Assembly: GCF_001306055.1 (NCBI RefSeq)
Contig: NZ_LGHJ01000011.1
Coordinates: 150,001 to 182,000, forward strand
Length of the DNA stretch: 32,000 nucleotides
Direction of reading: 5' to 3'
Source: Bellilinea caldifistulae
GTDB lineage: Bacteria; Chloroflexota; Anaerolineae; Anaerolineales; Anaerolineaceae
The notes under the pieces were generated by a model. The model ran no database searches. It was given only the letters and a program-made list of their open reading frames with translations, and was not told the origin of the DNA. Shown in pieces: positions 7,992 through 30,705 of the stretch. Position 1 is the first letter of the stretch; every line of letters begins with the position of its first letter. The position numbers and the translations under genes were made by a program.

Positions 7992-8015
7992 TTTCTCACG
8001 CTCCTCCGGGAACCT

Positions 8016-8606: not shown

Positions 8607-8618
8607 GGCTCTGGCTCC

Positions 8619-10233: not shown

Positions 10234-10276
10234 GATTCAGTCTCCTCTCTGGCGAATGATTGAAAAAAAGGACCGA

Positions 10277-11896: not shown

Positions 11897-11925
11897 CGCT
11901 TTCCTCCTGATGAACCGATAAAAAA

Positions 11926-12987: not shown

Positions 12988-13006
12988 GTTTGCTTCTCCT
13001 CACGTC

Positions 13007-13552: not shown

Positions 13553-13569
13553 TTTCCGCTCCATAGTCA

Positions 13570-15288: not shown

Positions 15289-15349
15289 TGCTTCCTCCTT
15301 TGACGAATGATGAAAATGACGGCTCAATAGAATGAATGAGTAATCCTTC

Positions 15350-17017
15350 TCAACACATCAGCACCGCCCCCGTATCGGCGCTGGTAACAAACTGCTGATA
15401 GCGGCGCAGCCAGCGGCTGGTCGTGCGCGGTTGAAAGGGCGGCAGTTCTGCCAGCCGACGGGCAATTTCCTCGTCGCTCAGGTGCACGTTCAGGCTGCGC
15501 TCATCGAGGTTGATTTCAATCACATCACCGGGCTTGAGCGCCGCAATTGGACCTCCGGCCGCCGCCTCCGGAGAAACATGCCCAATGCAGGCGCCGCGTG
15601 TGCCACCCGAAAAACGCCCGTCGGTGATCAGGGCCACCTTATCGCCCAGTCCCATGCCCATGATGGCGCTGGTCGGGCTGAGCATCTCCTGCATGCCCGG
15701 TCCGCCCTTCGGGCCTTCGTAGCGGATGACCACCACATCGCCGGGCTGGACTTCGTGGGCGAGAATGCCGCGCAGGGCATCTTCCTGCGATTCGTAAATC
15801 CGCGCCGGCCCGCTGAAACGGCGCATATTCGCCGAAACACCGCCGGTCTTGACCACCGAACCGCGCGGCGCCAGATTGCCGAAGAGGATCGCCAGCCCGC
15901 CGTCGGTTGAGTGGGCGTTCTCCCAGCGGCGGATGACCTCTTCATCGCGGATTTCTGCTCCCTGCAGGTTCTCCCCCATCGTTTTACCGCTCACGGTCGG
16001 GCGGTCGAGGTGCAGCATGCCCGTAGCGCGCTGAATTTCGTTCAAAATCGCCGGGATACCGCCGGCGCGGTGGACATCTTCCATGTGCCACTTGCCGGCC
16101 GGGCTGACCTTGCACAAGTGACGCACCTTTGCCGATACCTGATTGATCCGTTCAAGCGAGTAGGGAAATCCGGCTTCGTTGCAGATGGCCAGGGCGTGCA
16201 GGATGGTGTTGGTTGAGCCGCCCATCGCCATATCCAGCGCAAAGGCGTCGTCCATCGCCTCGGGGGTGATGATGTCGCGCGGGCGCAGGTCGCGCTCGAC
16301 CAGATCCAAAATCAACCCGGCCGCCCGTTGAGCCAGTTCCTCGCGCTCCGGCGTATTCGCCAGCGCCGAGCCGTTGTAGGGCAGAGCAATCCCCAGCGCT
16401 TCCATCAGGCAGTTCATGCTGTTGGCGGTAAACATGCCGGAACACGAACCGCACGAGGGGCAGGCGTAATCTTCCAGCACTTTCAGTCGGCTGCGACTCA
16501 TCCGGCCGGCCTGCACCGCTCCAACCCCCTCGAAGACCGAGATCAGGTCAATCACCTCGCCATCCGGGGTGCGCCCGGCCGCCATCGGCCCACCGGAGAT
16601 GAAAATGGCCGGAATGTTGACCCGCACAGCCCCCATCAACATGCCCGGAACGATTTTGTCGCAATTGGGAATGCATACCATGCCATCGAAGGGGTGGGCG
16701 GAAATCATCGTCTCAATCGAGTCGGCAATCAGCTCGCGTGAGGGCAGCGAAAACTTCATCCCCTCGTGTCCCATGGCGATACCGTCATCCACGGCAATCG
16801 TGTTGAACTCAAACGGCACACCGCCAGCAGCGCGGACGGCTTCTTTGATCTTTTTTCCAAATGCCTGCAAGTGAACATGACCGGGGACGATATCCACATA
16901 GGAATTGACAATCGCAATAAACGGCTTACCCAAATCGGCATCGGTTACGCCGGTGGCTTTGAGTAAAGCCCGGTGAGGTGCAAATTCAAGTCTGGTTTTG
17001 ATGGGAGTGGAGCGCAT
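15350..17017 (-). CDS. ilvD: dihydroxy-acid dehydratase
   Basis: 555 aa with [11 protein letters not shown] and CPSCGSC Fe-S motifs. It is the first gene of the operon. Confidence 0.94.
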
Positions 17018-17046
17018 GGTTCTTCCTCTGGCGATAACGGGTTATC

Positions 17047-17078
17047 AAAAAAGACCGCCCGGTTGGGCGGTCTTTTTT
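17047..17078 (-). terminator. intrinsic terminator (attenuator) 29 nt upstream of the ilvD ATG
   Basis: Minus strand reads AAAAAAGACCGCCC-AACC-GGGCGGTCTTTTTT: a 9-bp GC-rich stem, a 4-nt loop and a U-tract. ACCGCCCAA (17071..17063) is complementary to TTGGGCGGT (17145..17137) inside the leader ORF. Confidence 0.8.
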
Positions 17079-17102
17079 CTTTGCTATGCGTTAGGTCTGA
17101 GT

Positions 17103-17222
17103 TTATCTGCTTCTGGACTCTCCTGCGCTCACTCTTACCGCCCAAACGGGTAATGGGTTCTCGAGTACAATAACGAGAACCAAAATCGCGATAAGAATGA
17201 ACAGGGAGAAGAACGAAATCAT
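17103..17222 (-). CDS. candidate ilv/leu leader peptide, 39 aa: MISFFSLFILIAILVLVIVLENPLPVWAVRVSAGESRSR
   Basis: The ORF lies between the promoter and the terminator. Residues 7-20 are 12/14 Ile/Leu/Val, and there are 3 Phe at positions 4, 5 and 8. The SD is weak. It is too short to appear in the ORF track. Confidence 0.6.
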   Translation of the reverse strand: MISFFSLFILIAILVLVIVLENPLPVWAVRVSAGESRSR

Positions 17223-17261
17223 CGGGGGATAAATTTTTCCAAATTGGGGAAATTTCGCCCT

Positions 17262-17290
17262 ATTGTAGGACAATTGGAGTCAAAAGTCAA
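17262..17290 (-). promoter_or_regulatory. sigma70-type promoter for the ilv/leu leader and operon
   Basis: TTGACT (17290..17285), a 17-nt spacer, then TACAAT (17267..17262). An A/T-rich UP-like tract lies upstream. Confidence 0.65.
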
Positions 17291-17333
17291 GTACCTTTCA
17301 AAAATTTTAACCTTTTCTTTACATTGGTGGAGT

Positions 17334-18389
17334 TCAAGACACATACCCCAACCGTACCATCAACTCGGCGTTGAGCAGCGAGCCGCCGGCCGCCCCGCGG
17401 ATGGTGTTGTGCGAAAGCACCGTCAGGCGCAGGTCAAAGAGAGCATCCGGGCGCACCCGTCCCACCACCGTCGTCATGCCCCGGCCGGTCATCCGGTCAA
17501 GGCGCGGCTGGGGGCGGTTTTCCTCCTCGCGCACCACAATCACCGGTCGGGCTACCGAAGGCAGATCCGCCACCGGAGCGGGAGCTTCGTACTCTGCCAG
17601 TACAGCGGCAGCCTGTTCGGGAGCAGCCCGCCCAGCCAGTTCGACCGAAAGACACACTAAATGACCGTCGGTCACTGCCACCCGGTTGGTATGCGCCGAA
17701 ATGCCGAATTCGGCAAGGCGGATCTCCTCGCCTTCCAGTTTGCCCAGCATCTTGCGCGGTTCCCACTCGACCTTGTCCTCCTCACCGCTGATAAACGGGA
17801 TGACATTATCGGCAATATCCAGCGAGGCAACCCCGGGGTAACCCGCCCCGGAAAGGGCCTGCAGCGAAACGGCAAACACCCGCTTCAAGCCAAAGGCGTC
17901 TTGCAGGGCTTTGAGGGCAATCGTCATGCCGGTGCTGGTGCAGTTCGGGTTGGTGGTAATCCAGCCCGTCCAGCCGCGCCGCCTGCGCTGAACTTCAACC
18001 AGGCGGGCATGTTCCGGATTCACCTCCGGAATGAGCAGCGGCACATCCGGCTCACGGCGGTAGGCGGAAGCATTCGAACACACCCCAATCCCGGCTTGCG
18101 CCAGGGCGGGCTCAACCTGACGGGCGATATCGGCTGGCAGCGCCGAAAACGCCAGACGAGCCCCGTTGAGCGATTCGGCTTCACTGGGCAGCACCGGCAT
18201 CATCCTCGCCCAATCGGGCATTGGCTCTGGCAACAGCCAGCGGCACACCTCGCCGTAGGTTTTTCCATGGCCGCGCTCCGAACCGGTCAACGCCACCACC
18301 TCGAACCACGGATGATTGTCCAGCAACTGCACAAAACGCTGGCCGACGCTGCCGGTTGCGGCCAGCACGGCAACCGGAATCTTGCTCAT
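17334..18389 (-). CDS. asd: aspartate-semialdehyde dehydrogenase
   Basis: 351 aa with VLAATGSVGQ NAD(P)-binding and NPNCTSTG active-site Cys motifs. Its start overlaps the aspartate kinase stop by 4 nt. Confidence 0.92.
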   Translation of the reverse strand: MSKIPVAVLAATGSVGQRFVQLLDNHPWFEVVALTGSERGHGKTYGEVCRWLLPEPMPDWARMMPVLPSEAESLNGARLAFSALPADIARQVEPALAQAGIGVCSNASAYRREPDVPLLIPEVNPEHARLVEVQRRRRGWTGWITTNPNCTSTGMTIALKALQDAFGLKRVFAVSLQALSGAGYPGVASLDIADNVIPFISGEEDKVEWEPRKMLGKLEGEEIRLAEFGISAHTNRVAVTDGHLVCLSVELAGRAAPEQAAAVLAEYEAPAPVADLPSVARPVIVVREEENRPQPRLDRMTGRGMTTVVGRVRPDALFDLRLTVLSHNTIRGAAGGSLLNAELMVRLGYVS

Positions 18390-19828
18390 GCCTGCACCTC
18401 CTGATGGGGAATGACCTGACGATGCAATGTGCGTACCGCCGCCTGGGTGTCCTCGTCCTTCAGCACAAAACTGATCGAGACCTCCGATGAACCCTGCGCG
18501 ATGGCGATCACGTTGATGCCCTGTTCGCCAAGTGCGCTGAACACCTTACCGGCGACCCCCGGCGTGCTGCGCATCCCCTCACCCACCACCGTGAGGATGA
18601 CCACCTCATCGGTTGCCCACACCCGGTCAATGTCCTTGCCCTGAATTTCGCGGTAAAACTCGTTCTGAATGGCGGCAATCACCCGCTCGGCTGCCGCAGC
18701 CGGTACGGCAATGCAGATGGCCTGCTCGGAAGATGCCTGCGAGATGAGCGAGATGTTGGTGCCGGTGGAGGCAATTGCCGCAAAAGTGCGCGCCGCCACA
18801 CCCGGCACACCCAGCATACCACGCCCCTCGACGGTAACCAGTTTCATCCCGCGGATGGCGGTAACCGATTTGACAATGCTGGAATGATTTTCGGGGGGTT
18901 TTTCGGCCACCAGCCGCGTGCCGGGATGATCCGGGTTGAAGGTGTTCAGCACGCGCAGGCCAATGCCGGCTTCGATCACCGGACGGATGGTTTTGGGGTG
19001 CAGCACCTTGGCGCCGGCGTAAGCCAGTTCGGCCACCTCGCGAAAGGTCAGTTCCTCGATGGTATGCGCCTCCGGTACGATGCGCGGATCGGCGCTCATC
19101 ACGCCGTCCACATCCGTCCAGATCCAGACTTCGTCAGCCGGCAGAGCCGCCCCCAGCAGAGCAGCCGTGTAATCCGAGCCGCCCCGTCCAAGGGTGGTTA
19201 CTACGCCGCTGCGGGTTGCGCCGATGAAGCCGGTCACCACCGGGACGATGCCCCTTTGCAGGAGAGGCGGCAGCACCTCACGCACCGCCGTCTGGGTCGC
19301 CGTCCATTCCGGGTAGGCAGATTGATGGTGATCATCCGTGATGATCAGGCTGGTTGCCTCAACCACCTGAGCCGGGCAGCCCTGTTCCTGAAGAGCAGCT
19401 GCCAGCAGACGCACCGCCATGCGTTCCCCCAGCGAGGAAACCGCATCCAGCGCCCGCGGGGTAGCCTCACCGAGGATATAAATCGCCAGACACAGCGATG
19501 CAAAATCGCCGATCATCCGCTCGATTTCGGCACGCACGGCTGCGGCGCGGTTGGACTCACACACCAGAGCGTTCAGAACTTCCTCGTGGCGGGCGGTCAG
19601 AGTCTGAGTTGCCTGCTGGTACACTTCGGCATCCCCGTGCGCTGCAGCCGTTGCGCTGCGCAGCAGCAAGTCGGTCACCCCCGAAAGGGCCGAAGTGACA
19701 ACGGTCAGGTAAGGCGAGCGGCTTTTCTGACGGATGATAATCTCCACCGTCTGACGCATGGCCGCCGGACTGCCCACCGACGTCCCGCCAAATTTCATCA
19801 CCAGATTTTGTGGATTGGATAAAGACAC
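18386..19828 (-). CDS. aspartate kinase with C-terminal ACT domains
   Basis: 480 aa with the KFGGTSVGS N-terminal motif, an amino-acid kinase fold and tandem ACT-like C-terminal regions. Confidence 0.9.
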   Translation of the reverse strand: MSLSNPQNLVMKFGGTSVGSPAAMRQTVEIIIRQKSRSPYLTVVTSALSGVTDLLLRSATAAAHGDAEVYQQATQTLTARHEEVLNALVCESNRAAAVRAEIERMIGDFASLCLAIYILGEATPRALDAVSSLGERMAVRLLAAALQEQGCPAQVVEATSLIITDDHHQSAYPEWTATQTAVREVLPPLLQRGIVPVVTGFIGATRSGVVTTLGRGGSDYTAALLGAALPADEVWIWTDVDGVMSADPRIVPEAHTIEELTFREVAELAYAGAKVLHPKTIRPVIEAGIGLRVLNTFNPDHPGTRLVAEKPPENHSSIVKSVTAIRGMKLVTVEGRGMLGVPGVAARTFAAIASTGTNISLISQASSEQAICIAVPAAAAERVIAAIQNEFYREIQGKDIDRVWATDEVVILTVVGEGMRSTPGVAGKVFSALGEQGINVIAIAQGSSEVSISFVLKDEDTQAAVRTLHRQVIPHQEVQA

Positions 19829-19856
19829 TTTAAAAACACCTCACTTTCCTGTACCA

Positions 19857-22184
19857 TTACTCCGCCGGCCGTAAATAACCCATACCTTTCTTGCCGTCCA
19901 TCCGAATTTCCAGCCGGTGGGCTGGGCGCTCGGCCGGCAGGTGAATGACTTTGATGCACTCCAGCGCCGCCGAATTTTCCTCAATCCAGACTGACCGCTG
20001 GTCAGTTGCCCGGCGCAAAAATGCCAGATTGAGATAATCGTCTTCTTCTTCCGCCGAAACCGCCAGCGGGAAAATGCCCGACTCGACCAGATCCTGAAAG
20101 AAATGCGTGCCGTAGGACGGCTCGGAGGCATAGCCGCCTTTGCGGCTGGTCAGTTCGATCAGCGCGCGGGTGTTGAAAATATCGGCATAGGTGACCGGCA
20201 CACCCTGCATGAAATCGGTCGAGCCCCAGCGCCCCGGCCCGATCAGGACGAAGTTTTTGCCTTCCAGCGCGCGGTTGATCTGGGCAATCCGGCGGGCTGT
20301 TTCGCTGAAATCATGCGCCGAGGGCAGGCGGTAGTATTTTTCCGGATCCACAAAGACGATGTACTCCACCCCCTCCACCACCCCCAGCGGCACCATCCGG
20401 TTGCTGACAAAGATCACATCCTCGTCGCGCACTCCCTCTGGCAACCGCACCGCCAAATCGGCATTCCAGCTGTGATGCGGGCGGCATTGCAGCAGGTGAA
20501 ATTTCAGGTCGGGCTTGCCACCTTCCCCCGGCTGAATCGTCAGGGCAAACTCCACATCTACCGCCGAGTGGTACTCCTCCGCCAATCGGCTCAGAATATT
20601 GCGCAGCAGGGGAACGAAATCGGTTTGCAGCAGCCGTTCAAACGTGACCACGAACTGGCTGGGCTGCAGCGAAAGCCCCAGCGTCAACGGCGGGCGGATT
20701 GTCTCGCCATCGTCCACCGAGATGACCCAGCGCAGTGCCGGAAAGTCCGTCCCCAGCACCTCTTGCACCGGCAGAGTGACCAGCGCATTGCTTTGCAAGT
20801 CAATCACATCCATCTGATGCTGAGAGTACTGGCGGATCGCCTGCGGGGTCACCTCCGGGCGCAGGTTAGGATGACTCAGACCGATCAGGCGGGGGTAATC
20901 GTTGGGGGTGCGTTCCACGGCGCGCGTCCCCAGCCCAACCACCAGGCGGGCAAAGCCCTCCTCCCGGCGCAGGCGCGGGTTCCACACAATCGGGCTGAAC
21001 GAGTAGGCAACGCCGGCTGCTGACGGGAAATACTTCCCCCGATACGGCTGACCCTGCACCTCTTGAATCAGGATCGCCATGCGTTCGTCGTAGTCAATCA
21101 GCCCCATCCGGCGGCGGTACGAAAGCGCATCCGGATTGTAAATGCTGGCATACGCCCGCCGGATTGCCAGAGTCAGGTCGCGCAGGTTTTCTTTGAGGCT
21201 GCCCTGGTTGGGGCAGAAAACGCTCAGGTACTTGCCTGCAAATGACGCGCCAAAATTATCCTCCAACAGGCTGGAAGAGCGCACGATCAGGGGGGTGTTG
21301 CCCACCTCGCGCAGCAGGTCGCGCAGTTGATCGGCAATCTCCTCCGGAAAGCGCCCGCCGGCGTATTTTTCCTGAATCAGCGGGTAATCCTGCCGGATTT
21401 GCTCATCCGATTTGTACTTCTGATTGACGTATTCCAGATCGTTCAGCGCGAGGAAGTCGTAGAACACATCCGCACCGATGAAGTACGAACGTGGCAGGGT
21501 GATGCGCTCGGCCAACTGGGGGACAGTCGCCTGCAGGATTTTATAGGCCAGCAGCATTCCGGCGGCTTTGCCGCCAATTTTGCCGCTGCCGATGCGGTGG
21601 CGGATGATGTAGCTGAAATCGGCAGCCGTGAACCAGCGTTTGGCAATTCGGATGAAGCCCAGCTGGTCACTCAGCAGGCTTTTGAGCAGCACCACCCGCA
21701 GCTCTTCGAGATGGTGCTGCACCTGAGCGCGCTGCTCCGGCGGCAGAGATTCGTAGGCTTCTGCCTGACGCAGTACCATCTCCAGCGGAGCCAGTTCCGG
21801 GTTGAAACGCAGGCTGATTTCCGATCCAACCGGCGGGCGCTCTCCTCCGCGATCGGCCAGCACATCATCTACAATCTTGTGCAGCAGTTCAATCGGCAGG
21901 TTGTAGGCAAAGTAAAAATCGGTCAGGATGCGACGGATGCGGTGATAGCGCAACTCCCAACGTTCGCTGTCCTCCGGACGCTGCTCATCGCCCAGCCCTT
22001 CGCGCTTCTGCGATTCGATGGCCTTTTCGCGGATTTCCTGCTCGAACCGCTCCGGCGAAATGATCCCACGCTGGAACAACTCCTCGCGCATCCGCCGACG
22101 GATGGAGGAAGCCAGCATGGGGTACTGCGCCAGCAGCAGGTAAATTTCCAGAATTTTCGATGACTCAGGGGGAATAACCGACAT
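19857..22184 (-). CDS. PEP/pyruvate-binding (PPDK_N, ATP-grasp) domain protein lacking recognisable swivel-His and PEP-utilising domains; function unknown
   Basis: 775 aa with GSGKIGGKAAGMLLA and VRSSSLLEDNFGASFAGKY motifs, typical of the nucleotide-binding domain of pyruvate,water/phosphate dikinases. A ~190-aa N-terminal region and a ~250-aa C-terminal region are unassigned. Confidence 0.75.
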   Translation of the reverse strand: MSVIPPESSKILEIYLLLAQYPMLASSIRRRMREELFQRGIISPERFEQEIREKAIESQKREGLGDEQRPEDSERWELRYHRIRRILTDFYFAYNLPIELLHKIVDDVLADRGGERPPVGSEISLRFNPELAPLEMVLRQAEAYESLPPEQRAQVQHHLEELRVVLLKSLLSDQLGFIRIAKRWFTAADFSYIIRHRIGSGKIGGKAAGMLLAYKILQATVPQLAERITLPRSYFIGADVFYDFLALNDLEYVNQKYKSDEQIRQDYPLIQEKYAGGRFPEEIADQLRDLLREVGNTPLIVRSSSLLEDNFGASFAGKYLSVFCPNQGSLKENLRDLTLAIRRAYASIYNPDALSYRRRMGLIDYDERMAILIQEVQGQPYRGKYFPSAAGVAYSFSPIVWNPRLRREEGFARLVVGLGTRAVERTPNDYPRLIGLSHPNLRPEVTPQAIRQYSQHQMDVIDLQSNALVTLPVQEVLGTDFPALRWVISVDDGETIRPPLTLGLSLQPSQFVVTFERLLQTDFVPLLRNILSRLAEEYHSAVDVEFALTIQPGEGGKPDLKFHLLQCRPHHSWNADLAVRLPEGVRDEDVIFVSNRMVPLGVVEGVEYIVFVDPEKYYRLPSAHDFSETARRIAQINRALEGKNFVLIGPGRWGSTDFMQGVPVTYADIFNTRALIELTSRKGGYASEPSYGTHFFQDLVESGIFPLAVSAEEEDDYLNLAFLRRATDQRSVWIEENSAALECIKVIHLPAERPAHRLEIRMDGKKGMGYLRPAE

Positions 22185-22201
22185 ACCTCACCGCCTGCCA
22201 G

Positions 22202-22254
22202 AGAGGGTATAAAATTCTGCTTCACTTTGGCGAATGCTGAAAATTATACCCTCT
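22202..22254. promoter_or_regulatory. 11-bp perfect inverted repeat AGAGGGTATAA-N31-TTATACCCTCT between the gdh stop and the PPDK_N gene start
   Basis: The arms are at 22202..22212 and 22244..22254. On the minus strand the first arm contains TATAAT. Confidence 0.4.
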
Positions 22255-22265
22255 TCCGCCCATTT

Positions 22266-23528
22266 TTACGCCCAGCCGCGCAGCCGAACCGCTTCCGCCA
22301 CCCGGCTAACCGCCACCAGATAAGCCGCCTTGCGGTAGTCCACACCGTGCTGCCGGGCAACCTCATGGACCTTCCAAAACGCACCGGTCATGCGCTGGTC
22401 AAGCCGCTGATGCACCTCGTCCTCATCCCAGTAATAGCCGTAGGCATTTTGCACCATCTCAAAGTACGAAACGGTAACGCCGCCGGCGTTGCACAAAAAG
22501 TCGGGCAGCACGACGGCTTTTTTGGCAAACAGCACCGCGTCGGCTTCCGGCGTGGTCGGGCCGTTGGCCAGCTCGGCGATGAACCGCGCCTTGATTCGCT
22601 CGCAATTTTCCTGATGGATGGCGTTTTCCAGCGCGGCCGGAATCAGCACCTGCACATCCAGTTCAAGCAGTTCGGCATTGCTGACCGGCTGTGCGCCGGG
22701 GAAGTTGACCACTGAACCGGTGCGCTGCTTGTGCGCCAGCACCGCCTCGTAGTCCAGGCCGTCCGGGTTGTAAATACCGCCGCGCGAGTCGGAAACCGCC
22801 ACCACCTTGAGTCCGAGCAGCTCAGCGCCCAGTTTGTGGGCAAAAGAACCGGCGTTGCCGTATCCCTGAATGGCGGTCGTTGCGCCGCGCAAATCCACCT
22901 GATGGGCTTTGGCGGCCTCGCGCAGACAGTACATTCCGCCGCGAGCCGTGGCATCCCCGCGCCCGGCCGAGCCGCCCAGCGCCAGCGGTTTGCCGGTGAT
23001 CATCCCAAATTCGGTGTAACCGCGCTGGTAGGAAAACTCATCCACCATCCAGGCCATGATCTGGGGAGTGGTGTACACATCCGGCGCCGGTACATCCGCC
23101 TCGGCGCCCAAAATGCGCCCCACCTGACGAATGTAGGCGCGACTGAGCCGTTCCAGTTCACCGGGAGAAAGCTGCTTGGGGTCGCAGATGATTCCGCCCT
23201 TGCCGCCCCCCAGCGGCAAGTCCATCACGGCGGTTTTCCAGGTCATCCAGGCTGCCAGCGCACGCACGGTATCCACCGTTTCCTCGCTGTGGTAGCGGAT
23301 TCCGCCCTTGCACGGACCGCGCGCATCGTTGTACTGAACGCGAAAGCCTTGAAAAATGCGCACCGTGCCGTCATCCATGCGCACTGGAAGGGTGACATGC
23401 AATTCACGCATCGGCCAGCGCAGCAGCTCATGCACCGCCGCGTCTAATTGCAACAGGCGCGCGGCTTCATCGAGTTGCTGCTGAGCCACCCGAAACGGGT
23501 TATAGGGTTGAGAAGATGAAGCAGACAT
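22266..23528 (-). CDS. gdhA: NAD(P)-dependent glutamate dehydrogenase
   Basis: Contains the PLGGGKGG active-site Lys motif of Glu/Leu/Phe/Val dehydrogenases. The start is ATG 23528, preceded by AAGGAGGAAG; the 20-codon upstream extension in the track is unlikely. Confidence 0.92.
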
Positions 23529-23835
23529 AAAAAACTTCCTCCTTGGCGAAGTAGAATGCTGGCGAATCACCTCTTTTGGAGGTAGCAAACCGATAGGATA
23601 AGTTAAAGTGCAGCGCCGCGAGTCCTCTACGGCGTCTGGGTGATTTGCTCCGCCGGCACAGGCAGAGAACCCTCCCGGCGGCAGCCCTCGCTTGAAATCA
23701 ACGCGTGGGGGGAGTTATTGTAATAATCGGGGCGTGGGGTGAACGGCTAACGGGAACCCGCTGCAACCGTCTAGTGGAAAAACGCAGCAACCAATTACCT
23801 CAAATCCGGACGGTCTGTTTTCAAAAAGTTGGGCT

Positions 23836-23864
23836 ATTTTATATTCATTTCATCCGTTTTGTAA
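23836..23864 (-). promoter_or_regulatory. candidate gdh promoter
   Basis: TTACAA (23864..23859), a 17-nt spacer, then TAAAAT (23841..23836) on the minus strand. If used, the 5' leader is ~300 nt. Confidence 0.3.
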
Positions 23865-23937
23865 AGGGATTGAAGGAAAATTCAGATCATTTTTCCGAAA
23901 AAATCGCTTCGGTTGAATTTTTTTAACCTTTTCTTAA

Positions 23938-23965
23938 TTGACTTTTTCAAAAAACTCACTATACT
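23938..23965 (+). promoter_or_regulatory. sigma70-type promoter for the Met leader and downstream PLP enzyme
   Basis: TTGACT (23938..23943), a 16-nt spacer, then TATACT (23960..23965). An A/T-rich tract lies upstream. Confidence 0.6.
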
Positions 23966-23996
23966 ATGGGGTAATTCCCGTTCAGGTAAACATTCG

Positions 23997-24113
23997 ATGA
24001 CCTTAATTCCTGCAAGCCTGCTGATTGCTCTCTCCCTCATGGCGATGATGATGGCGATGGTCATGCGCGGCCTCATCCAGCAGGCAGCGCTTGCACGGAG
24101 ACGGGTCGAATAA
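23997..24113 (+). CDS. candidate methionine leader peptide, 38 aa: MTLIPASLLIALSLMAMMMAMVMRGLIQQAALARRRVE
   Basis: This is the promoter-distal part of track ORF 23913..24113. There are six AUG codons within nine codons (24039..24065). CAGGCAGC (24081..24088), inside the ORF, is identical to the terminator right arm and so can pair with the left arm. Confidence 0.6.
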   Translation: MTLIPASLLIALSLMAMMMAMVMRGLIQQAALARRRVE

Positions 24114-24146
24114 AAACCGGCTTCTGCATCGCTCATCGTCCACCAG

Positions 24147-24187
24147 CGGGCTGCCTGCAAGGTTCAGGCAGCCCGTTTTTTATTTTT
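24147..24187 (+). terminator. intrinsic terminator (attenuator) 21 nt upstream of the PLP-enzyme ATG
   Basis: CGGGCTGCCTG-CAAGGTT-CAGGCAGCCCG followed by TTTTTTATTTTT: an 11-bp stem with a U-tract. Only the RBS (GGAGG) fits between it and ATG 24209. Confidence 0.85.
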
Positions 24188-24208
24188 CAGTTCCCCGGAG
24201 GTATTCCC

Positions 24209-25456
24209 ATGACACAAACTGTGCCCCTTTCCACCCTGATAGACCTGCTCAACCGGCAACCGGACCCCGAATCATGGGGCGATTCGACCCGTGCCATTCA
24301 TGCCGGCAGCCAGCGCGAAAAACCCTACCACGCCATCATCGAACCGCTGGTACAAACCGCCACCTACACATTTCGCAACAGCGAGGAAGTGATTGCCTAT
24401 CAGGACGCTCACAGCCGCGGCCTGCCCACCGACCGTCTCGAATACGGGCGCTACGGCAACCCGACCATCGCCGCCTGCGAGGCACGCCTGGCCGCCCTGG
24501 AAGGCGCCGAAACCGCCATCCAGTTTGCCAGCGGCATGGCCGCGATTACCACCACCCTGCTGGCCTGTCTGCGCAGCGGCGACCATCTGGTGATGACCGA
24601 CGACTGTTACCGTCGGACGCGCCAGATCTGTCTGGAATTTTTAGCGCGTTTTGACATTCAGACCAGCGTCGTACCCATCGGCGATTACGCTGCGCTGGAA
24701 GACGCCATCCGCCCGAACACCCGCTTGCTGCTCTCCGAAACGCCCACCAATCCCTATCTGCGCGTGCTGGATCTGGAACGATTTTCTGAAATCGCCCACC
24801 GCCATCGGCTGATCAGCGTGGTGGATACCACCTTTGCCACCCCCTTCAACCAGCGCCCGCTGGATTGGGGTGTGGACATCGTCATTCACTCGGCCACCAA
24901 GTATCTGGGCGGTCACAATGACCTTCTGGCCGGCTTCGCTGCCGGCAGCGCCGCGGCTCTGACTCCTGTGCGTGAACTGCACAACATTCTTGGCGCCACC
25001 GCCGACCCGCACAACGCCTACCTGCTGCTGCGGGGCATTAAGACCCTCAGCATCCGGCTGGGGCGCCATAATGAAAACGGGCAACGGGTCGCCGAATTTC
25101 TGGAATCCCACCCGGCTGTCGAGCAGGTCTGGTATCCCGGTCTGCCCTCCCATCCCGATTACGCAGTGGCCAGCGCGCAGATGAAAGGCTTTGGCGGTGT
25201 GGTTTCTTTCACCGTGCGCGGCGGCCTGTACGATACCGCTCGCTTCATTGACCGCCTGCAAATCCCCTACATTTCGCCTTCGCTGGGCGGAACGGAGAGT
25301 CTGGTCATTCAACCGGCACTGATGTCCTACTACGATGTCCCACCGGAAAAACGACAGGCGCTGGGCATCCGCGACAATCTGGTGCGCCTGTCATTGGGGC
25401 TTGAGGATGCCGACGACTTGATCGCAGACCTGAAGCAGGCTCTCGAAGCGTTGTAA
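24209..25456 (+). CDS. Cys/Met-metabolism PLP-dependent enzyme (cystathionine gamma-synthase / O-acylhomoserine sulfhydrylase family)
   Basis: 415 aa with the PLP-lysine signature DIVIHSATKYLGGHND and an N-terminal STRAIHAG motif. The exact reaction cannot be assigned by eye. Confidence 0.88.
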   Translation: MTQTVPLSTLIDLLNRQPDPESWGDSTRAIHAGSQREKPYHAIIEPLVQTATYTFRNSEEVIAYQDAHSRGLPTDRLEYGRYGNPTIAACEARLAALEGAETAIQFASGMAAITTTLLACLRSGDHLVMTDDCYRRTRQICLEFLARFDIQTSVVPIGDYAALEDAIRPNTRLLLSETPTNPYLRVLDLERFSEIAHRHRLISVVDTTFATPFNQRPLDWGVDIVIHSATKYLGGHNDLLAGFAAGSAAALTPVRELHNILGATADPHNAYLLLRGIKTLSIRLGRHNENGQRVAEFLESHPAVEQVWYPGLPSHPDYAVASAQMKGFGGVVSFTVRGGLYDTARFIDRLQIPYISPSLGGTESLVIQPALMSYYDVPPEKRQALGIRDNLVRLSLGLEDADDLIADLKQALEAL

Positions 25457-25469
25457 AACCCTCCCTCGG

Positions 25470-25838
25470 TTGACGTCACCACGAGCGAGCGCGGCAATCT
25501 CCCGCAGGGCCGGGAGGGAGATTTCTCGCTTCGCCCGAAATGACGTTTACGGGTATACGTCACCGCGAGCCGCCGCAGGCGGCGTGGCGGTCTCCGGCAG
25601 GGCCGTTGCGGAGGTTGGGCGGGAGACCCCTCACTCCGTTCGGGGTGACATTAGCTGGTTTACGTCACAGCGAGCCGCCGTCAGGCGGCGTGGCGGTCTC
25701 CGGCAGGGCCGTTGCGGAGGTTGGGTGGGAGACCCCTCACTCCGTTCGGGGTGACATTAGCTGGTTTACGTCACCGCGAGCCGCCGTCAGGCGGCGTGGC
25801 GGTCTCCGGCAGGGCCGTTGCGGAGGTTGGGTGGGAGC
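25470..25838 (+). repeat. tandem array of hairpin-forming repeat units: one divergent ~86-nt unit followed by 2.7 near-identical copies of a 105/106-nt unit
   Basis: Unit starts (TACGTCAC...) are at 25556, 25661 and 25767. The copies differ at only 2-3 positions. Internal stems are GCCGCC-GTCA-GGCGGC, GGTCTCC...GGAGACC and GGTGAC...GTCACC. The array starts 14 nt after the PLP-enzyme stop. Confidence 0.9.
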
Positions 25839-26234
25839 CCTCCCAGCGCGGCACCAAGCGCAGTGCGGTGCAAGTGTCGCTGATGCTCGATAGGACGAAC
25901 AAATTGCCAAAAACTACAATCCTACCGGCAGGCGTTTCAATTCGGCAGGATTTTTTCCATAGAGGACTGCTCTTGCCCTGTGGGTAAGGGAATTTTATTC
26001 TTTGGTGACCGGTCGGCGGGCAGGGAATTCGGCGCGTACAAAGAATGTATAAGGTTAGGGAACCAGAGGGATGTTTTTCCGGCTGGCTGGTGTTATAGTA
26101 ATCTTAGATGCAGGTGGGAAAACACAAGCAAAGGAGACAGCCACACCCATCGCCTGCCGGCAGCTAAAGCGTGAATTATTCGGTAAAAATAATTTTTCGT
26201 CAGGCTGCTCCAATTCAAACAAGGAGTAATCAAT

Positions 26235-27041
26235 ATGACTTCGGAATCAAATGGTCCCCTCGTTGCCGCCGCTGCAGAATTGAAAAAATTTCAGGGGCTG
26301 CGCCGTTTTAACCTGATCATGGGCTTTCTGCACCTGATTCAGGGCATTTTCATGTGGGTAGTCAGCAATGATAGAACCTACCCGATTTTCACCAACTACC
26401 TCACCTTCGACCGGGCAACCTTCACCCTGACACCCAACCCACAATTGCTCTACGAACTACCCTTCGGACCGGCTGTAGCCGTCTTCCTGCTCATCTCAGC
26501 CGTTGCCCACTTCTACCTTTCCACCATTGGCTACCGCCCGTATGTCGAAAATCTGAAGAAGGGCATGAACCCCATCCGCTTTTACGAATATGCTCTCAGT
26601 TCCTCGTTGATGGTTGTGCTGATCGGTATGCTGGTCGGCATCTGGGACCTGGGGACGATGATCGCCATTTTCGGCATCAACGCCATGATGAACCTGTTTG
26701 GCATCATGATGGAAGTTCACAACCAGACGACCACGCGGACGAACTGGCTGGCGTTTATTTACGGCTGTCTGGCAGGTATTGTGCCGTGGATCGTGATTTT
26801 CCTGTACTTCATGGGAGCGGTCAACTCCGGCGACGCCAAACCACCGGCTTTTGTCTACGCCATCGTACCCACCCTGTTTGTGATGTTCAACATCTTTGCC
26901 GTCAACATGGTGCTGCAGTACAAAAAGGTCGGCCGATGGAAGGACTATCTCTACGGCGAACGGGTGTATATCATCCTCAGCCTGGTTGCCAAGACCGTGC
27001 TGGCATGGCTGATCTGGTTCGGCACACTCGCCCCGGTGTAG
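26235..27041 (+). CDS. heliorhodopsin (retinal-binding 7-TM photoreceptor family)
   Basis: 268 aa and 7 hydrophobic segments. Block-by-block similarity to heliorhodopsin 48C12 as I recall it: RFNLIMGFLHLIQ, AVAHFYLS, RFYEYALSSSLMVVLIG, IFGINAMMNLFG, CLAGIVPWIVIFLY, and GERVYIILSLVAKTVLAW with the Schiff-base Lys (K253, codon 26991..26993). SD AAGGAG lies 8 nt upstream. Confidence 0.9.
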   Translation: MTSESNGPLVAAAAELKKFQGLRRFNLIMGFLHLIQGIFMWVVSNDRTYPIFTNYLTFDRATFTLTPNPQLLYELPFGPAVAVFLLISAVAHFYLSTIGYRPYVENLKKGMNPIRFYEYALSSSLMVVLIGMLVGIWDLGTMIAIFGINAMMNLFGIMMEVHNQTTTRTNWLAFIYGCLAGIVPWIVIFLYFMGAVNSGDAKPPAFVYAIVPTLFVMFNIFAVNMVLQYKKVGRWKDYLYGERVYIILSLVAKTVLAWLIWFGTLAPV

Positions 27042-27260
27042 AAATACCCGCGCCACAGCCCTTGCCATCGCGAGCAGCATCCAGAACTCTCTGCCATAAC
27101 CACCCGCCGCGGATGGGTCATCGGCAATAGCAGACAGCGCCTTTTCAACACCACTCCATCGGCGCACGCTCAAGGCCAACCATTTCGAACCTTACAAATT
27201 CGTTAACCCAACCCGGACTACCCATCCAGCTCTTGAAAAAAATTTTTTGGGTATATTTTA

Positions 27261-27288
27261 ATAATACGGCAATTCACATCCGTATTAT
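27261..27288. promoter_or_regulatory. 9-bp perfect inverted repeat ATAATACGG-N10-CCGTATTAT upstream of the LamG-like gene
   Basis: The arms are at 27261..27269 and 27280..27288, in an A/T-rich tract that also contains TTGAAA and TATATT promoter-like hexamers. Confidence 0.3.
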
Positions 27289-27318
27289 CAAATATCTTAC
27301 ACGGTTGAGCTGCGGTAC

Positions 27319-28260
27319 ATGAAACGGATGGGGCTAATTGGATTCGGGGCTGTTTTGCTGGCACTTATCCTGCCTGCCCAACCCAGGCAGGTTGTACTCT
27401 CTGTCGCGCCGGCTCAATCCAATCAAACCTCGTTGCGTTTCTTCGGCACGGGCAGCGGCGATATTGACCGGGTTAAGATTCCTCTGGATAATCCACATCG
27501 TTCGGTGGATGTCGGCGGCGATTTCACCATTGAGTTCTGGCTCAAAGCCGCACCCTCGAGTAACCCCAGCCCGTCCTGCCAGGAAAGCGCCTCCGAAGAC
27601 ACCTGGACAAACGGCAACATCATCCTCGACCGCGACATCTTTGGCGACGGCGATTACGGCGATTACGGCATCTCGCTTTACCGCGGTAGGATTGCCTTTG
27701 GTGCGGCGGTGGGCAGTAACCGCCGCACCATCTGCGGAATAAGCGACTTGCGAGATGGTCAGTGGCATCATGTAGCCGTCACCCGCCAGAGCGGGAATGG
27801 GCAGATGCGCATTTTTGTGGACGGGCAATTGCAAAAAACCGAAAACGGACCTGGCGGGAATCTCTCTTATCGGGACGGACGCAATACTTCTTACACGAAC
27901 AGTGACCCTTATCTGGTCATCGCCGCCGAGAAGCATGACTACGACCCCAGCACCTACCCATCCTTCAACGGCTGGTTGGACGAGTTACGCATCTCCAACG
28001 TCATACGCTACACAGCAAACTTTACCCCGCCGAGTATGCCCTTCAACCCCGATGCCAGCACGGTTGCACTTTATCACTTCGACGGTACGCCGGGCCCCTG
28101 TAACGGAACGGTCAGCGATGCTTCCGGTCAGGGCAATAACGGTCAATGCAAGCATGGCGGCACATCCCCAAATCTCGGCCCGCAGTATGTGCTTGACAGT
28201 CCCTTTACCGGTAGTATCATCTATGACTTTAAAATTTACCTGCCTTTGGTGCGCCGCTAA
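27319..28260 (+). CDS. secreted concanavalin-A-like lectin/LamG (Laminin_G_3-type) domain protein
   Basis: 313 aa with an N-terminal signal-like peptide (MKRMGLIGFGAVLLALILPAQP). It has the FTIEFWLK...DGQWHHVAVT...MRIFVDGQL pattern typical of LamG_3 domains. Confidence 0.75.
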   Translation: MKRMGLIGFGAVLLALILPAQPRQVVLSVAPAQSNQTSLRFFGTGSGDIDRVKIPLDNPHRSVDVGGDFTIEFWLKAAPSSNPSPSCQESASEDTWTNGNIILDRDIFGDGDYGDYGISLYRGRIAFGAAVGSNRRTICGISDLRDGQWHHVAVTRQSGNGQMRIFVDGQLQKTENGPGGNLSYRDGRNTSYTNSDPYLVIAAEKHDYDPSTYPSFNGWLDELRISNVIRYTANFTPPSMPFNPDASTVALYHFDGTPGPCNGTVSDASGQGNNGQCKHGGTSPNLGPQYVLDSPFTGSIIYDFKIYLPLVRR

Positions 28261-28292
28261 AAATTCTTAACATTTTGTTAGCCGTGCGGCTA

Positions 28293-28320
28293 TTGACAAT
28301 TCCGACCAAACCGCTATAAT
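28293..28320 (+). promoter_or_regulatory. consensus sigma70 promoter upstream of the lysW cluster
   Basis: TTGACA (28293..28298), a 16-nt spacer, then TATAAT (28315..28320). The predicted start site is only ~3-5 nt before ATG 28331. Confidence 0.65.
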
Positions 28321-28330
28321 TTGAAGCATC

Positions 28331-28420
28331 ATGAGTTTGGAACTGCGCGTGCGTAAGGATCGTCGTCCATTCCTTCCCCCTTGCGGGGCAGGACGGCTTT
28401 ATGCACGCCAGCGTGGTTGA
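28331..28420 (+). CDS. candidate leader ORF, 29 aa: MSLELRVRKDRRPFLPPCGAGRLYARQRG
   Basis: A near-leaderless short ORF between the promoter and the terminator. It has 4 Arg and 1 Lys in codons 6-12. GCGGGGC (28383..28389) is complementary to GCCCCGC (28463..28469) at the terminator apex. Confidence 0.35.
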   Translation: MSLELRVRKDRRPFLPPCGAGRLYARQRG

Positions 28421-28455
28421 GTTCCTTCACCAATCACAGTGAGTCGGCAAATCAA

Positions 28456-28486
28456 GCCCTCCGCCCCGCGGAGGGCATTTCTTTTT
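28456..28486 (+). terminator. intrinsic terminator (putative attenuator) 26 nt upstream of the lysW ATG
   Basis: GCCCTCCGC-CCC-GCGGAGGGC followed by ATTTCTTTTT. Only the RBS (GGAGG) lies between it and ATG 28513. Confidence 0.7.
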
Positions 28487-28512
28487 AACATCTTTTTCAA
28501 ACGGAGGTTCTC

Positions 28513-28680
28513 ATGTCCCTAACATCCTGTCCCGAATGCGAAGCCGCCATCGAGCTGAACGATGTCCTCGTCGGTGAAATTGTGGTCTGCCCGGATTGCG
28601 GTGTAGACCTGGAAGTAATCAGCCTTGAGCCACTCCAGCTGGAACTGGCTCCCATGGAAGAAGAAGACTGGGGCGAGTAA
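28513..28680 (+). CDS. lysW: amino-group carrier protein LysW (55 aa, zinc-ribbon)
   Basis: Not in the ORF track because it is under 60 aa. Sequence: [55 protein letters not shown]. It has CPxC...CPxC zinc-ribbon cysteines and the C-terminal EDWGE tail characteristic of LysW. SD GGAGG is present. Confidence 0.88.
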
Positions 28681-28703
28681 GCCCCGCCAAAGGAGAAACA
28701 GCG

Positions 28704-29654
28704 ATGAAAATTGGTGTCCTGCTTTCACGGGTGCGGATCGAGGAAAAGTGGATCCTCGAAGCGCTGGAAAAACGCGGCATCCCCCACGAGCGGATTGACG
28801 ACCGCGAAGCGGTGTTCGATTTTGCCCACCCCGAAAACTGGCTGTCCTACTCCGCCGTGCTGGAGCGCAGCCTCTCGTTTGCGCGCGGCCTGTACGCCAC
28901 CCAGATACTCAACGCCTGGGGCATTCCGACGGTCAACATGGCGCATGTCGCCGCTACCTGCGGGGATAAACTGGCCACTTCGGCTGCGTTGGCGCGCGCC
29001 GGCATCCCTCAGCCGCGCATCAAGGTCGCCTTCACCCCCGAATCGGCACTGCAGGCCATCGAAGAACTGGGCTACCCGGTGGTGTTAAAACCGGTGGTCG
29101 GTTCGTGGGGGCGGCTGCTCGCCAAAATCAACGACCGCGACGCCGCCGAAGCCATCCTGGAGCACAAAGAGACACTCGGTTCTTACCAGCACTCCATCTA
29201 CTACCTGCAGGAATACATCCAAAAGCCGGGACGCGACATCCGCGCCTTTGTGGTGGGGGATCAGACGGTGTGTGCCATTTACCGCACCTCCTCTCACTGG
29301 ATCACCAACACCGCTCGCGATGGCAAGGGAGAAGTCTGCCCAATCACGCCTGAATTGAACGCCTTATGCGTTGCGGCTGCTCAGGCAGTCGGCGGCGGCG
29401 TGCTGGCCGTGGATGTTCTCGAAGACCCGCAGCGCGGCTTTCTGGTCAACGAGATTAACCACACCAGCGAGTTTCACACCCTCGCCCCCACCACCGGGGT
29501 GGACGTTGCCGGCCTGATGGTCGAGTACACCCTCGCCGTTGCCGAGGGTCAAATTCACCCCCCGTTTCCGGCCGTGAGCGCGCCGCAAGTACCCATGGGC
29601 ATCCTGCACACCTCCCCGCTGGGCATCCCCCTGTGGAGGGCAGCCGCCCAATGA
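28704..29654 (+). CDS. lysX: RimK/ATP-grasp ligase LysX (alpha-aminoadipate or glutamate--LysW ligase)
   Basis: 316 aa ATP-grasp protein immediately after lysW, with SD AAGGAGA. Its stop overlaps the next start (ATGA). Confidence 0.85.
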
Positions 29655-30691
29655 GCCGCTTGCGCGTTTCAATCATCGGTGCGGCCGGTTATGTGGGCGG
29701 CGAGTTGCTGCGCCTGTTGCTCGATCATCCTTTCGTGGAAATCCAGCAGGCGACTTCCGGCAGTCACCTCGGTGAATTTGTGTATCAGCAGCACCCCAAC
29801 CTGCGCAAGCGCACCACCCTCAAATTCAGCGACCCTCAGCAGGTTAAACCGTGTGATGTCCTCTTTCTGGCAATGCCGCACGGCGAAAGCCAGCAGCGGA
29901 TCGAAGATTACGCCGCCATTGCCCCACGGATTGTGGACTGCTCGGCGGATTTCCGTCTGCGGGATGCCGAACTGTACCGGCGGTATTACGGAGAGGAACA
30001 CCGCGCCCCGGCCTGGTTGAGTAAGTTCGTTTACGGCCTGCCGGAATTACACCGCGAGGAAATGCGCTCGGCGGCTTACATCAGCGGCGTGGGCTGCAAC
30101 GCCACCGCCTCCATTCTGGCGCTTTACCCGCTGGTCAAGGCCGATGCGCTCGATCTCACCCGCCCGGTGATTGTCGAAATCAAAACCGGTTCTTCGGAGG
30201 GCGGGGCTTCCCCCAATCCCGGCAGTCATCACCCCGAACGGAGCGGCGTGATCCGCACCTTTTCGGCATACGGACACCGCCACACTGCCGAGGTGATTCA
30301 GGAACTCGGTCTGAGCGAGGTTCACCTGACCATGACGGCGGTGGATCTGGTGCGCGGCGCGCTGGCAACCGCTCACGCCTTTTTGCGTCCGGGCATTGGC
30401 GAAAAGGACTTGTGGAAAATCTACCGCCAATGGGCCGAAAGCGAGCCGTTCATCCGGCTGGTACGCGACCGGCGCGGCATTTACCGCGTGCCGGAGCCCA
30501 AAATTCTGGCTGGCAGTAACTACGCCGATGTCGGCTTCGATGTGGACGAATGTTCCGGGCGGGTGATCGGCATGGCGGCGATTGACAACCTGATGAAGGG
30601 CGCTGCCGGTTCAGCCGTGCAGGCGATGAACCTGATGTGCGGTTTTGACGAAACTGCCGGCCTGACTTTTGGCGGATTACACCCCATTTAG
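29651..30691 (+). CDS. lysY: LysW-bound aminoadipyl/glutamyl-phosphate reductase (ArgC/LysY family)
   Basis: Contains the [19 protein letters not shown](P) motif and the GVGCNATA active-site Cys. The start is ATG 29651, overlapping the lysX TGA. Confidence 0.88.
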
Positions 30692-30705
30692 CGGAGGAAT
30701 CACCC

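Follow-up and report, generated by a model that had tools for sequence, protein, structure and literature searches.

Are the leaders in front of three amino-acid biosynthetic units of Bellilinea caldifistulae classical attenuators, in which a ribosome translating a short peptide would decide whether RNA polymerase enters the operon? The question is raised by a 32,000-nucleotide (nt) stretch of contig NZ_LGHJ01000011.1 (positions 150,001 to 182,000 of the forward strand, assembly GCF_001306055.1), referred to here as the window. In this window an ilv/leu/pheA operon (unit U1), the gene of a PF01053 Met-pathway enzyme (U2) and a lysW cluster (U3) are each preceded by a promoter, a short open reading frame (ORF) and a transcription terminator. 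On the basis of sequence comparison and modelling, we consider it highly probable that each of the three is a functional ribosome-mediated (leader-peptide) transcription attenuator. Our confidence is higher still for U1 and U2 taken by themselves; as to what exactly U3 senses, it is lower. The parts of these units, their order, spacing and conservation, and the frame-specific bias of their codons are established from the sequence. The elements fall outside every curated RNA family, yet they display the defining features of classical attenuators that can be tested on sequence, with an alternative pairing that clearly exceeds chance in the ilv family.

The three units share a common anatomy (Table 1). 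A preliminary description of this DNA had placed promoters of the form TTGAC(T/A) and TA(C/T)A(A/C)T in front of all three, and these were found at those places, each with an A/T-rich tract 5' of the -35 hexamer. Between 14 and 32 kb, 13 promoter-like sites are observed compared to 5.9 ± 2.2 in shuffled sequence. A second near-consensus site, TTGACA-16-TATCAT (28193-28220, + strand, 11/12 match), lies 100 nt 5' of the U3 promoter, within the 3' end of an ORF at 27319-28260. The leader ORFs begin 10-40 nt 3' of the -10 hexamers; the U3 ATG is located 10 nt past its hexamer, making this ORF nearly leaderless. Pairing of the leaders to the anti-Shine-Dalgarno (anti-SD) sequence is weak (-3.3, -3.8 and -0.2 kcal/mol for U1, U2 and U3, respectively), confirming the earlier claim of 29-39-codon leader ORFs with a weak or absent SD. 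Structural genes with reliable starts mostly display anti-SD pairing of -8 to -11.6 kcal/mol, so a strong SD is indeed the rule for most of these genes, but the original wording of 'almost all' was too strong. Many leaders start 8-15 nt past the -10 hexamer, and are hence leaderless or nearly so; they include one in the window (28321-28333) and those of L131, L132, L008, L003 (ilv), L056 and L061 (L numbers denote related loci). Near-leaderless starts would account for the weak or absent SD of the leader ORFs. As had also been claimed, a GC-rich intrinsic terminator ends 21-29 nt before the first gene of each unit, and the intervening segment contains an SD and no second promoter. Two defining features of an attenuator are present in all three cases: a promoter-proximal short ORF upstream of amino-acid biosynthetic genes, and an intrinsic terminator between that ORF and the first structural gene.

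It is conceivable that intergenic DNA brings together promoter-like hexamers, ordinary terminators and short ORFs by chance alone. Indeed, terminator-like sites are no commoner in the window than in shuffles (20 versus 19.7, and 15 versus 16.1), and Arg/Lys runs are common in shuffled sequence. The terminators of U1, U2 and U3 are, however, the top three terminator-like sites by strength in the 32 kb, and each of them faces a biosynthetic gene. A further defining feature of attenuators, the codon run for the operon's own amino acid, is present in U1 and U2, and in U3 through conservation. We compared these runs with 200 dinucleotide-preserving shuffles of the 32-kb window, considering stop-free stretches in six frames. 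Neither the 6-of-9 Met run of U2 (MAMMMAMVM, codons 15-23, 24039-24065) nor the 16-of-19 I/L/V/F run of U1 was reached in any shuffle (0/200 for both). The U1 and U2 runs are significant from the window alone, while the specificity of U3, where the Arg/Lys cluster RVRKDRR occupies codons 6-12 (28346-28366), needs comparative support. When the three frames of each leader were compared, the ORF frame was strictly top for the cognate count in 11/11 Met, 20/22 lysW and 4/4 ilv leaders, and the ATGs of the U2 Met run are all in frame 0. Furthermore, all three units are conserved in relatives with enzymes that are 57-83% identical. Chance co-occurrence appears extremely improbable in this light. The contention that the recurrence is not a coincidence is upheld by leaders that persist in diverged relatives, with cognate codons kept in frame while the remaining peptide drifts.

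The Met unit offers the widest comparison. A genome scan with the Met enzyme yielded about 23 Chloroflexota loci. Among species-representative genomes, the closest relatives by this enzyme are 'Chloroflexota bacterium MAG175' (90% identity) and a Bellilinea sp. (89%), and other relatives carry an Anaerolineae or Anaerolineales annotation. In L001, L003, L007, L008, L015 and L022 the region upstream of the orthologue contains a short ORF rich in Met and, 3' of it, a terminator of the form GGCUGCC...GGCAGCC. Four contigs picked solely by enzyme identity (L129-L132, 68-81%) show the same arrangement, and L136-L139 also contain a Met-rich leader; examples from relatives are MGIQFASAALFLVMAMGMMAMVMRRFSRQAALAEGKVI and MKTTSVFLPALFNMSMMMEMVMRGDTRQAVVEERQV. 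A peptide profile built on an alignment headed by the 47-residue L130 leader retrieved 14 protein clusters annotated as hypothetical, including one of the cultured Thermanaerothrix daxensis and one of Bellilinea sp. The Met leader of T. daxensis occupies positions 3001-3123 of L136. In total, the Met-rich leader has counterparts in over 15 loci or protein clusters of Anaerolineae, and in 5/5 contexts inspected the peptide gene is directly 5' of the PF01053 enzyme despite differing neighbours. Alignment of seven leaders reveals a helix CUGCU:GGCAG, flanking the Met run 5' and 3', that is kept in 7/7, with GGCAG invariant in the family. A hairpin formed inside the Met run is likewise kept in the alignment, as is the terminator, in which two compensatory pairs are observed.

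In six other loci (L006, L013, L014, L019, L021 and L026) an S-adenosylmethionine (SAM)-sensing SAM-I riboswitch (RF00162, 76-91 bits) is found in place of the leader, while an Rfam scan of the window, and of nine loci that have a Met leader or are related, detected no SAM-I aptamer; the Met-leader loci gave no Rfam match at all. No other observation speaks more strongly than this alternation for a role of the enzyme in Met biosynthesis and for the leader as a comparable regulator. Yet another arrangement is seen at L011 (~8690-8790) and L016 (~9625-9730), where the region upstream of the orthologous Met enzyme contains a promoter (TTGACAAAAC...TGTTATCAT) as well as a long, conserved hairpin (GCGACGAAGCCUCUUC...GAGAGGCUUCGUGC). 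The upstream regions of these two loci contain no Met leader, SAM riboswitch or Rfam match, and the hairpin arrangement may represent a third type of control. In L130 (2748-4190) and L132 (2790-4208) aspartate kinase directly follows the Met-leader-controlled enzyme; in the window, aspartate kinase and asd are instead found on the opposite strand, between the ilv and Met units.

Single transmembrane helices are what the peptides of both U1 and U2 resemble. Furthermore, such ORFs are called as genes in public records, with one extended version named as a membrane protein. It could thus be argued that they encode real small hydrophobic membrane peptides with terminators of their own, for which the link with biosynthesis is incidental or reflects some other role. 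This would not explain why divergence of the peptides is free everywhere but at the cognate residues and in segments pairing with the terminator, nor why the Met peptide is always directly before the same enzyme, in varied neighbourhoods and in alternation with SAM-I. U3 shares the same design and is not hydrophobic, and in every unit the terminator is separated from the gene by 21-29 nt and an SD, without a second promoter. We consider the membrane-peptide explanation highly improbable. Extended Met leader ORFs are publicly named 'membrane protein YqhA' or 'LrgA-family effector' (P0124, P0134); these names probably reflect a mis-annotated leader peptide.

Leaders of the ilv type were found in L001, L003 and L022. 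In L003 and L022, ilvD is 77% identical and sits just 3' of the Met enzyme, and the leaders, each with a terminator, read MDTFAGFTLVLLDLLLVLILLGIENPIRVWAVRGVRHRP and MFAISFLLVLLAIAVLILIENTSYTRAAEAVIKTQA, respectively. The distal ORF segment covaries with the terminator arm in these loci, with GGGCGGU/ACCGCCC in the window, GGGCAG/CUGCCC in L003 and GGGCAGCC/GGCUGCCC in L022.

In the case of lysW, LysX was used to scan metagenomes and yielded 80 loci (65-100% identity), of which the 57 with at least 200 nt upstream of lysW were counted. A short ORF and terminator precede lysW in 28/57, lysW directly follows another gene in 22/57, and 7/57 are unclear. In the 22 leaderless loci the preceding gene is recognisable as the C-terminus of argH (including L053, L057, L059, L069, L076 and L079), an arrangement that places the LysW carrier-protein cluster inside an arginine operon. 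Adjacent Lys-Arg codons are kept in 20/22 non-redundant and widely differing lysW leaders, with examples such as ...FLPKRRP..., ...SELKRRP..., ...LRLRRKP... and ...GAKRG.... The Arg codons vary between CGA, CGG, CGT and CGC, and the order of residues is either KRR or RRK. Such synonymous codons and permuted order point to the codons, and not an RNA motif, as the target of selection. Taken together, the Lys and Arg codons and the argH-lysW arrangement suggest that the LysW cluster serves arginine synthesis (ornithine), or arginine and lysine synthesis together.

An alternative for U3 is a nascent-peptide arrest sensor, with K-R-R(-P) responding to a small molecule (ornithine or arginine) in the manner of SpeFL or the fungal arginine attenuator peptide. 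Pro often follows the K-R-R core, and SpeFL-type sensors have an Arg-rich motif (PMC12360218). However, the sign is wrong: a stall at high Arg/ornithine would favour the antiterminator, switching the pathway on. Neither is the peptide around the core conserved, and the core itself is variable (KRR, RRK, KR, RxRKxRR), which is a better fit to codon counting. We deem an arrest peptide very unlikely for this unit.

The preliminary description had asked for the same pattern in related genomes. We scanned all retrieved loci, after masking, for an intergenic short ORF followed by a terminator, and assigned the downstream genes to families. In L014 (Anaerolineales, 1640-1781), a leader with five consecutive Cys codons, MNQHKASFNVSTVENNMMCCCCCMLS, is followed by a terminator upstream of cysK (TIGR01139, 483 bits); the genome that contains this leader has its Met enzyme behind a SAM-I riboswitch. 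An aroH-type chorismate mutase lies directly behind a Tyr/Phe leader and terminator in L006 (3754-3932) and L026 (11242-11401), which belong to two different Chloroflexota orders, with leaders ...VYFYFYF... and ...LYFYFYY.... Cognate-codon leaders are hence found upstream of five amino-acid operon types in Chloroflexota (ilv, Met, lysW, cysK and aroH), and the enriched residue matches the pathway in each.

These observations also bear on the possibility that the leaders are translation-independent RNA switches, with a metabolite, tRNA or protein as ligand and the ORFs as mere by-products. Some stretches are strongly conserved: the Met family keeps AUGGUCAUGCG and GGCAGC, and many of the lysW leaders share AAGCGACGACC. 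Against this, a search of the window with 4227 Rfam families gave no match at the gathering score. The only sub-threshold matches are located on the U1 terminator, the best being Leu_leader (RF00512; 29.7 bits, gathering score 50), Phe_leader (RF01859; 25.8, gathering score 55) and Thr_leader (RF00506; 22.4, gathering score 55). Rfam did not detect a T-box riboswitch in the window or in 17 related loci. In addition, every homologue retains an intact ORF that begins with ATG and has its stop in frame; the enrichment of cognate residues is specific to the ORF frame, with synonymous Arg codons and a permuted K/R order; and the enriched amino acid matches the pathway in all five operon types. A switch that operates without translation is very unlikely in view of these properties.

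Leader-peptide attenuation as the function of the three units was further assessed by RNA folding. The minimum free energy (MFE) folds of the three leader transcripts consist of two elements, a 5' helix of regions 1 and 2 into which the regulatory codons are drawn and, 3' of it, the terminator (z versus shuffles of -5.6, -2.3 and -3.6 for U1, U2 and U3). The duplex of the U1 antiterminator strand with the terminator arm has a z of -3.6. The segments complementary to the terminator 5' arm are CAGGCAGCGCU, inside 24078-24091, for U2 and GCAGGACGGC, 28388-28397, for U3. The earlier claim that a distal ORF segment is complementary to the terminator is therefore borne out in each unit; it rises clearly above shuffles for the ilv family only (z of -1.6 to -2.6, duplex mean -2.6). 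We modelled ribosome stalling by allowing the ribosome to shield mRNA to 14 nt past the first base of the A-site codon and forbidding pairing across it. In a co-transcriptional variant, the transcript was folded before the terminator 3' arm is made. In the truncated transcript, the antiterminator, in which the terminator 5' arm is captured by the distal ORF segment, is predicted to form for an A site at F4-P23 in U1, only at M15-R24, which is the Met run, in U2, and at codons 2-16 in U3. A ribosome that has moved farther 3' or reached the stop codon leaves this arm of the terminator unpaired or weakly held. The full-length MFE fold of U3 loses its terminator for an A site at V7-F14. The very stable terminators of U1 and U2 are never lost from the full-length equilibrium MFE with the ribosome on the leader, and the switch of these two units appears only in the co-transcriptional (truncated) model. 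We thus infer from thermodynamic modelling that switching depends on the position of the ribosome, as a classical attenuator would be expected to behave.

The following mechanism can be proposed. Transcription would start from a strong sigma-70-type promoter, with a ribosome engaging the leader ORF almost immediately. When cognate aminoacyl-tRNA is abundant, this ribosome would cross the regulatory codons and cover or pass the antiterminator strand. With that strand covered, the GC-rich terminator hairpin would form and RNA polymerase would stop 21-29 nt before the first gene. When cognate aminoacyl-tRNA is scarce, the ribosome would instead stall within the cognate run. The stall would open the region 1:2 helix, enabling region 2 to pair with the terminator 5' arm and leading to read-through into the operon. 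In ilvD...pheA the run sensed would be Ile/Leu/Val/Phe; the PF01053 enzyme would respond to Met, and the lysW cluster to Arg together with Lys. Judging by codons and pathways, charged tRNA would be the signal.

Several points weigh against this interpretation. The 5-of-7 Arg/Lys run of U3 is reached in 200/200 shuffles; as the run is at chance level in a GC-rich window, the specificity of this unit depends entirely on conservation. Complementarity to the terminator arm is not clearly above dinucleotide shuffles for either the Met family (mean z of -0.5 to -0.9) or the lysW family (mean z of about -0.9). This can be explained by the ease with which short GC-rich arms find partners, and L093, L096, L115, L058, L073, L007 and L131 are individually significant members of these two families. 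For the window Met leader, a comparison of free-energy differences gave about equal sequestration of the arm with the ribosome stalled (-4.8) or at the stop codon (-5.8), and in the truncated transcript without a ribosome the arm pairs with region 1 (-14). In the model, this pattern is at odds with simple superattenuation. Being hydrophobic, the peptides of U1 and U2 might equally be taken for small membrane peptides, and Met starvation would limit initiation of the leader ORF in addition to elongation through its Met run. Finally, the attenuation model assumes transcription-translation coupling in Chloroflexota; we know of no study of such coupling in this phylum. On balance, ribosome-mediated attenuation is supported for the three units, including that sensing Met and possibly that sensing Arg/Lys, by conservation, the alternation with SAM-I, modelled stalling and the additional Cys and Tyr/Phe leaders.

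'Lineage-wide', as first suggested, is only partly correct: it holds for a clade and not for the phylum, about half of the related loci using SAM-I for Met or having lysW in an arg operon without a leader. The term 'regulon' is a misnomer, as the units are independent cis-acting sensors. For the Anaerolineae clade that comprises Bellilinea, Thermanaerothrix and relatives, we see an even chance that mostly leaderless attenuators serve as the default amino-acid sensors, including the first clear Met-codon and dual Lys+Arg-codon types.

Leader-peptide attenuation is textbook knowledge in Proteobacteria, where it operates for Trp, His, Leu, Thr, Ile/Val and Phe, and there are a few cases in Actinobacteria and Firmicutes. 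Genes for Arg and Tyr are usually described as T-box- or repressor-controlled, and those for Met and Lys as riboswitch-controlled. Met codons have reportedly been predicted in the Pasteurellales thrA leader by Vitreschak et al. (2004), and leader-peptide attenuation of the Thermus thermophilus lysine (alpha-aminoadipate, LysW-dependent) cluster is reported to have been shown by Tsubouchi et al. (J Biol Chem 2005). The Thermus cluster resembles U3 in its LysW-pathway genes and in a short ORF with basic-residue codons followed by a terminator. However, the Thermus leader is reported to contain Lys codons and to be located at the homocitrate synthase end, whereas U3 is directly before lysW and has adjacent Lys and Arg codons. 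The enterobacterial attenuators (trpL, hisL, leuL, thrL, ilvL/ivbL and pheL) likewise combine a short ORF containing a cognate run with 1:2, 2:3 and 3:4 helices and a terminator. U1 is the counterpart of the ilvGMEDA, ilvBN and leu leaders of this group, and adds Phe codons that match the pheA gene at the operon end. There is no sequence or structure homology with the enterobacterial leaders; in contrast to these, the Chloroflexota units have a weak or no SD, are often leaderless, and have specificities that include Met and Arg+Lys.

According to published surveys, leader-peptide systems occur in Proteobacteria, in Actinobacteria and in some Firmicutes (PMC2965389), whereas riboswitches are listed for Met and Lys, and T-boxes for Tyr and Arg (PMC1262725). 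A weak Streptomyces lividans candidate, metL before metNIQ, contains only two Met codons internally, and its termination is unclear (PMC8079986). Actinobacterial leaderless leaders (trpL, ilvL, leuL and Cys-rich cys; PMC1262725, PMC8079986) are similar to the present units in their cognate runs and in a start near the transcription start. Many of them are without a recognisable intrinsic terminator, whereas in the Anaerolineae units the runs are dense, reaching 6 Met in 9 codons, and the terminators are of the textbook kind. The ilvB-OMG and ilvB-II motifs, conserved upstream ORFs rich in branched-chain codons that occur in several phyla, have been re-interpreted as attenuators (PMC10272879). 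These are located before ilvB, while U1 is before ilvD, and no Rfam model matches the window. SAM-I is best viewed as a functional analogue of the Met leader: in six Chloroflexota it is found at the equivalent site, between the promoter and the PF01053 orthologue, and likewise acts through a terminator-based expression platform. SAM-I senses SAM by means of an aptamer, whereas the Met-leader loci carry a translated Met run, for which the signal would be the charging of Met-tRNA. A full-text literature search for leader-peptide attenuation in Chloroflexi or with Met codons returned nothing relevant, Lopatovskaya et al. 2010 being outside its reach. The mechanism itself is known; what would be new, judging by these comparisons, are the Met and Lys+Arg specificities, the Chloroflexota host and the replacement of SAM-I by a Met leader.

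Gene identities in the window were taken from NCBIfam assignments. A laminin-G-type protein is also encoded on the plus strand, and the lysW cluster continues with lysJ and lysK just past the window end. The 10-kb contig flanks on either side of the window contain no additional amino-acid operons. The heliorhodopsin gene is missing at the corresponding position in L001 and present in L002. In the spacer between this gene and the Met enzyme lies a tandem repeat (25552-25837) with a 106-nt unit, 2.7 copies and 97% matches. Two further attenuator candidates were rejected. The 220-nt gap between leuA and leuC does not contain an internal attenuator but a 69-residue ORF with a strong SD, annotated as a gene in the source record and without a family assignment. 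A Lys-rich short ORF with a weak hairpin at ~3220-3392 (- strand) was dismissed because the gene it precedes encodes a sensor histidine kinase and because its 'terminator' falls within the histidine kinase ORF.

Table 1. Positions in the window of the U1, U2 and U3 elements and of the genes they accompany.
Feature	Position	Strand	Remarks
U1 promoter TTGACT-17-TACAAT	17262..17290	-	10/12 match; same sequence in L001
U1 leader ORF MISFFSLFILIAILVLVIVLENPLPVWAVRVSAGESRSR	17103..17222	-	39 codons; I/L/V/F at 16 of codons 2-20
U1 region 1 CUGUUCAUUCUUAUCG	17188..17203	-	within regulatory codons; pairs region 2 without ribosome (anti-antiterminator); MFE fold
U1 antiterminator strand GGGCGGU (region 2 core)	17137..17143	-	pairs terminator 5' arm GACCGCCC
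U1 intrinsic terminator GACCGCCC-AACC-GGGCGGUC + U6	17047..17078	-	ends 29 nt before ilvD ATG at 17017
U1-controlled operon ilvD-ilvB-ilvN-ilvC-leuA-(69-aa ORF)-leuC-leuD-cimA-leuB-ilvE-pheA	3512..17017	-	NCBIfam; gene calls
ilvD	17017..15350	-	NCBIfam
69-aa (amino acid) ORF AGAGGAGA	10024-10233	-	strong SD; between leuA and leuC, overlaps leuC start
pheA	4366..3512	-	NCBIfam; last gene of U1 operon
U2 promoter TTGACT-16-TATACT	23938..23965	+	10/12 match; kept in L001, L136, L137
U2 leader ORF MTLIPASLLIALSLMAMMMAMVMRGLIQQAALARRRVE	23997..24113	+	38 codons; annotated 38-aa gene in source record
U2 region 1 GCCUGCUGAUUGCU	24016..24029	+	5' of Met run; pairs region 2
U2 region 2 = antiterminator strand CAGCAGGCAGCGCU	24078..24091	+	codons 28-32; complementary to terminator 5' arm
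U2 intrinsic terminator, 13-bp stem AGCGGGCUGCCUG...CAGGCAGCCCGUU (24145-24177) + U tract	24145..24187	+	ends 21 nt before 24209
U2-controlled gene: pyridoxal phosphate (PLP) enzyme, Cys/Met-metabolism family (cystathionine gamma-synthase / sulfhydrylase type, PF01053)	24209..25456	+
U3 promoter TTGACA-16-TATAAT	28293..28320	+	12/12 match
U3 leader ORF MSLELRVRKDRRPFLPPCGAGRLYARQRG	28331..28420	+	29 codons
U3 antiterminator strand CCCCCUUGCGGGGCAGGACGGCU	28378..28400	+	pairs terminator region
U3 intrinsic terminator GCCCUCCGC-CCC-GCGGAGGGC (28456-28476) + AUUUCUUUUU	28456..28486	+	ends 26 nt before lysW
U3-controlled cluster lysW-lysX-lysY(argC)-lysZ(argB)	28513..31509	+	NCBIfam
asd, aspartate kinase, phosphoenolpyruvate (PEP)-utilising-type protein, gdh: separate genes	17334-23588	-	NCBIfam
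Heliorhodopsin	26235-27041	+	NF038020, 379 bits; between Met and lysW units

If the proposed model is correct, several public 'hypothetical proteins' of 38-47 residues would be explained as leader peptides. Codon-counting attenuators would be able to evolve for Met, an awkward case since Met also starts the leader peptide. The Met-codon attenuator would have displaced SAM-I before the same gene, and would work despite Met starvation limiting the formyl-Met-dependent initiation of the leader. Such attenuators could likewise evolve for Lys+Arg, and could replace a SAM riboswitch before the same gene. A Lys+Arg attenuator would report both end products of the bifunctional LysW carrier-protein pathway, and the Lys and Arg codons, together with lysW following argH in relatives, bear on the product of the LysW cluster. 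The cultured Thermanaerothrix daxensis carries the Met leader, making the proposal directly testable in that organism. Leader-peptide attenuation would thereby reach the Chloroflexota, for which there is hardly any regulatory genetics.

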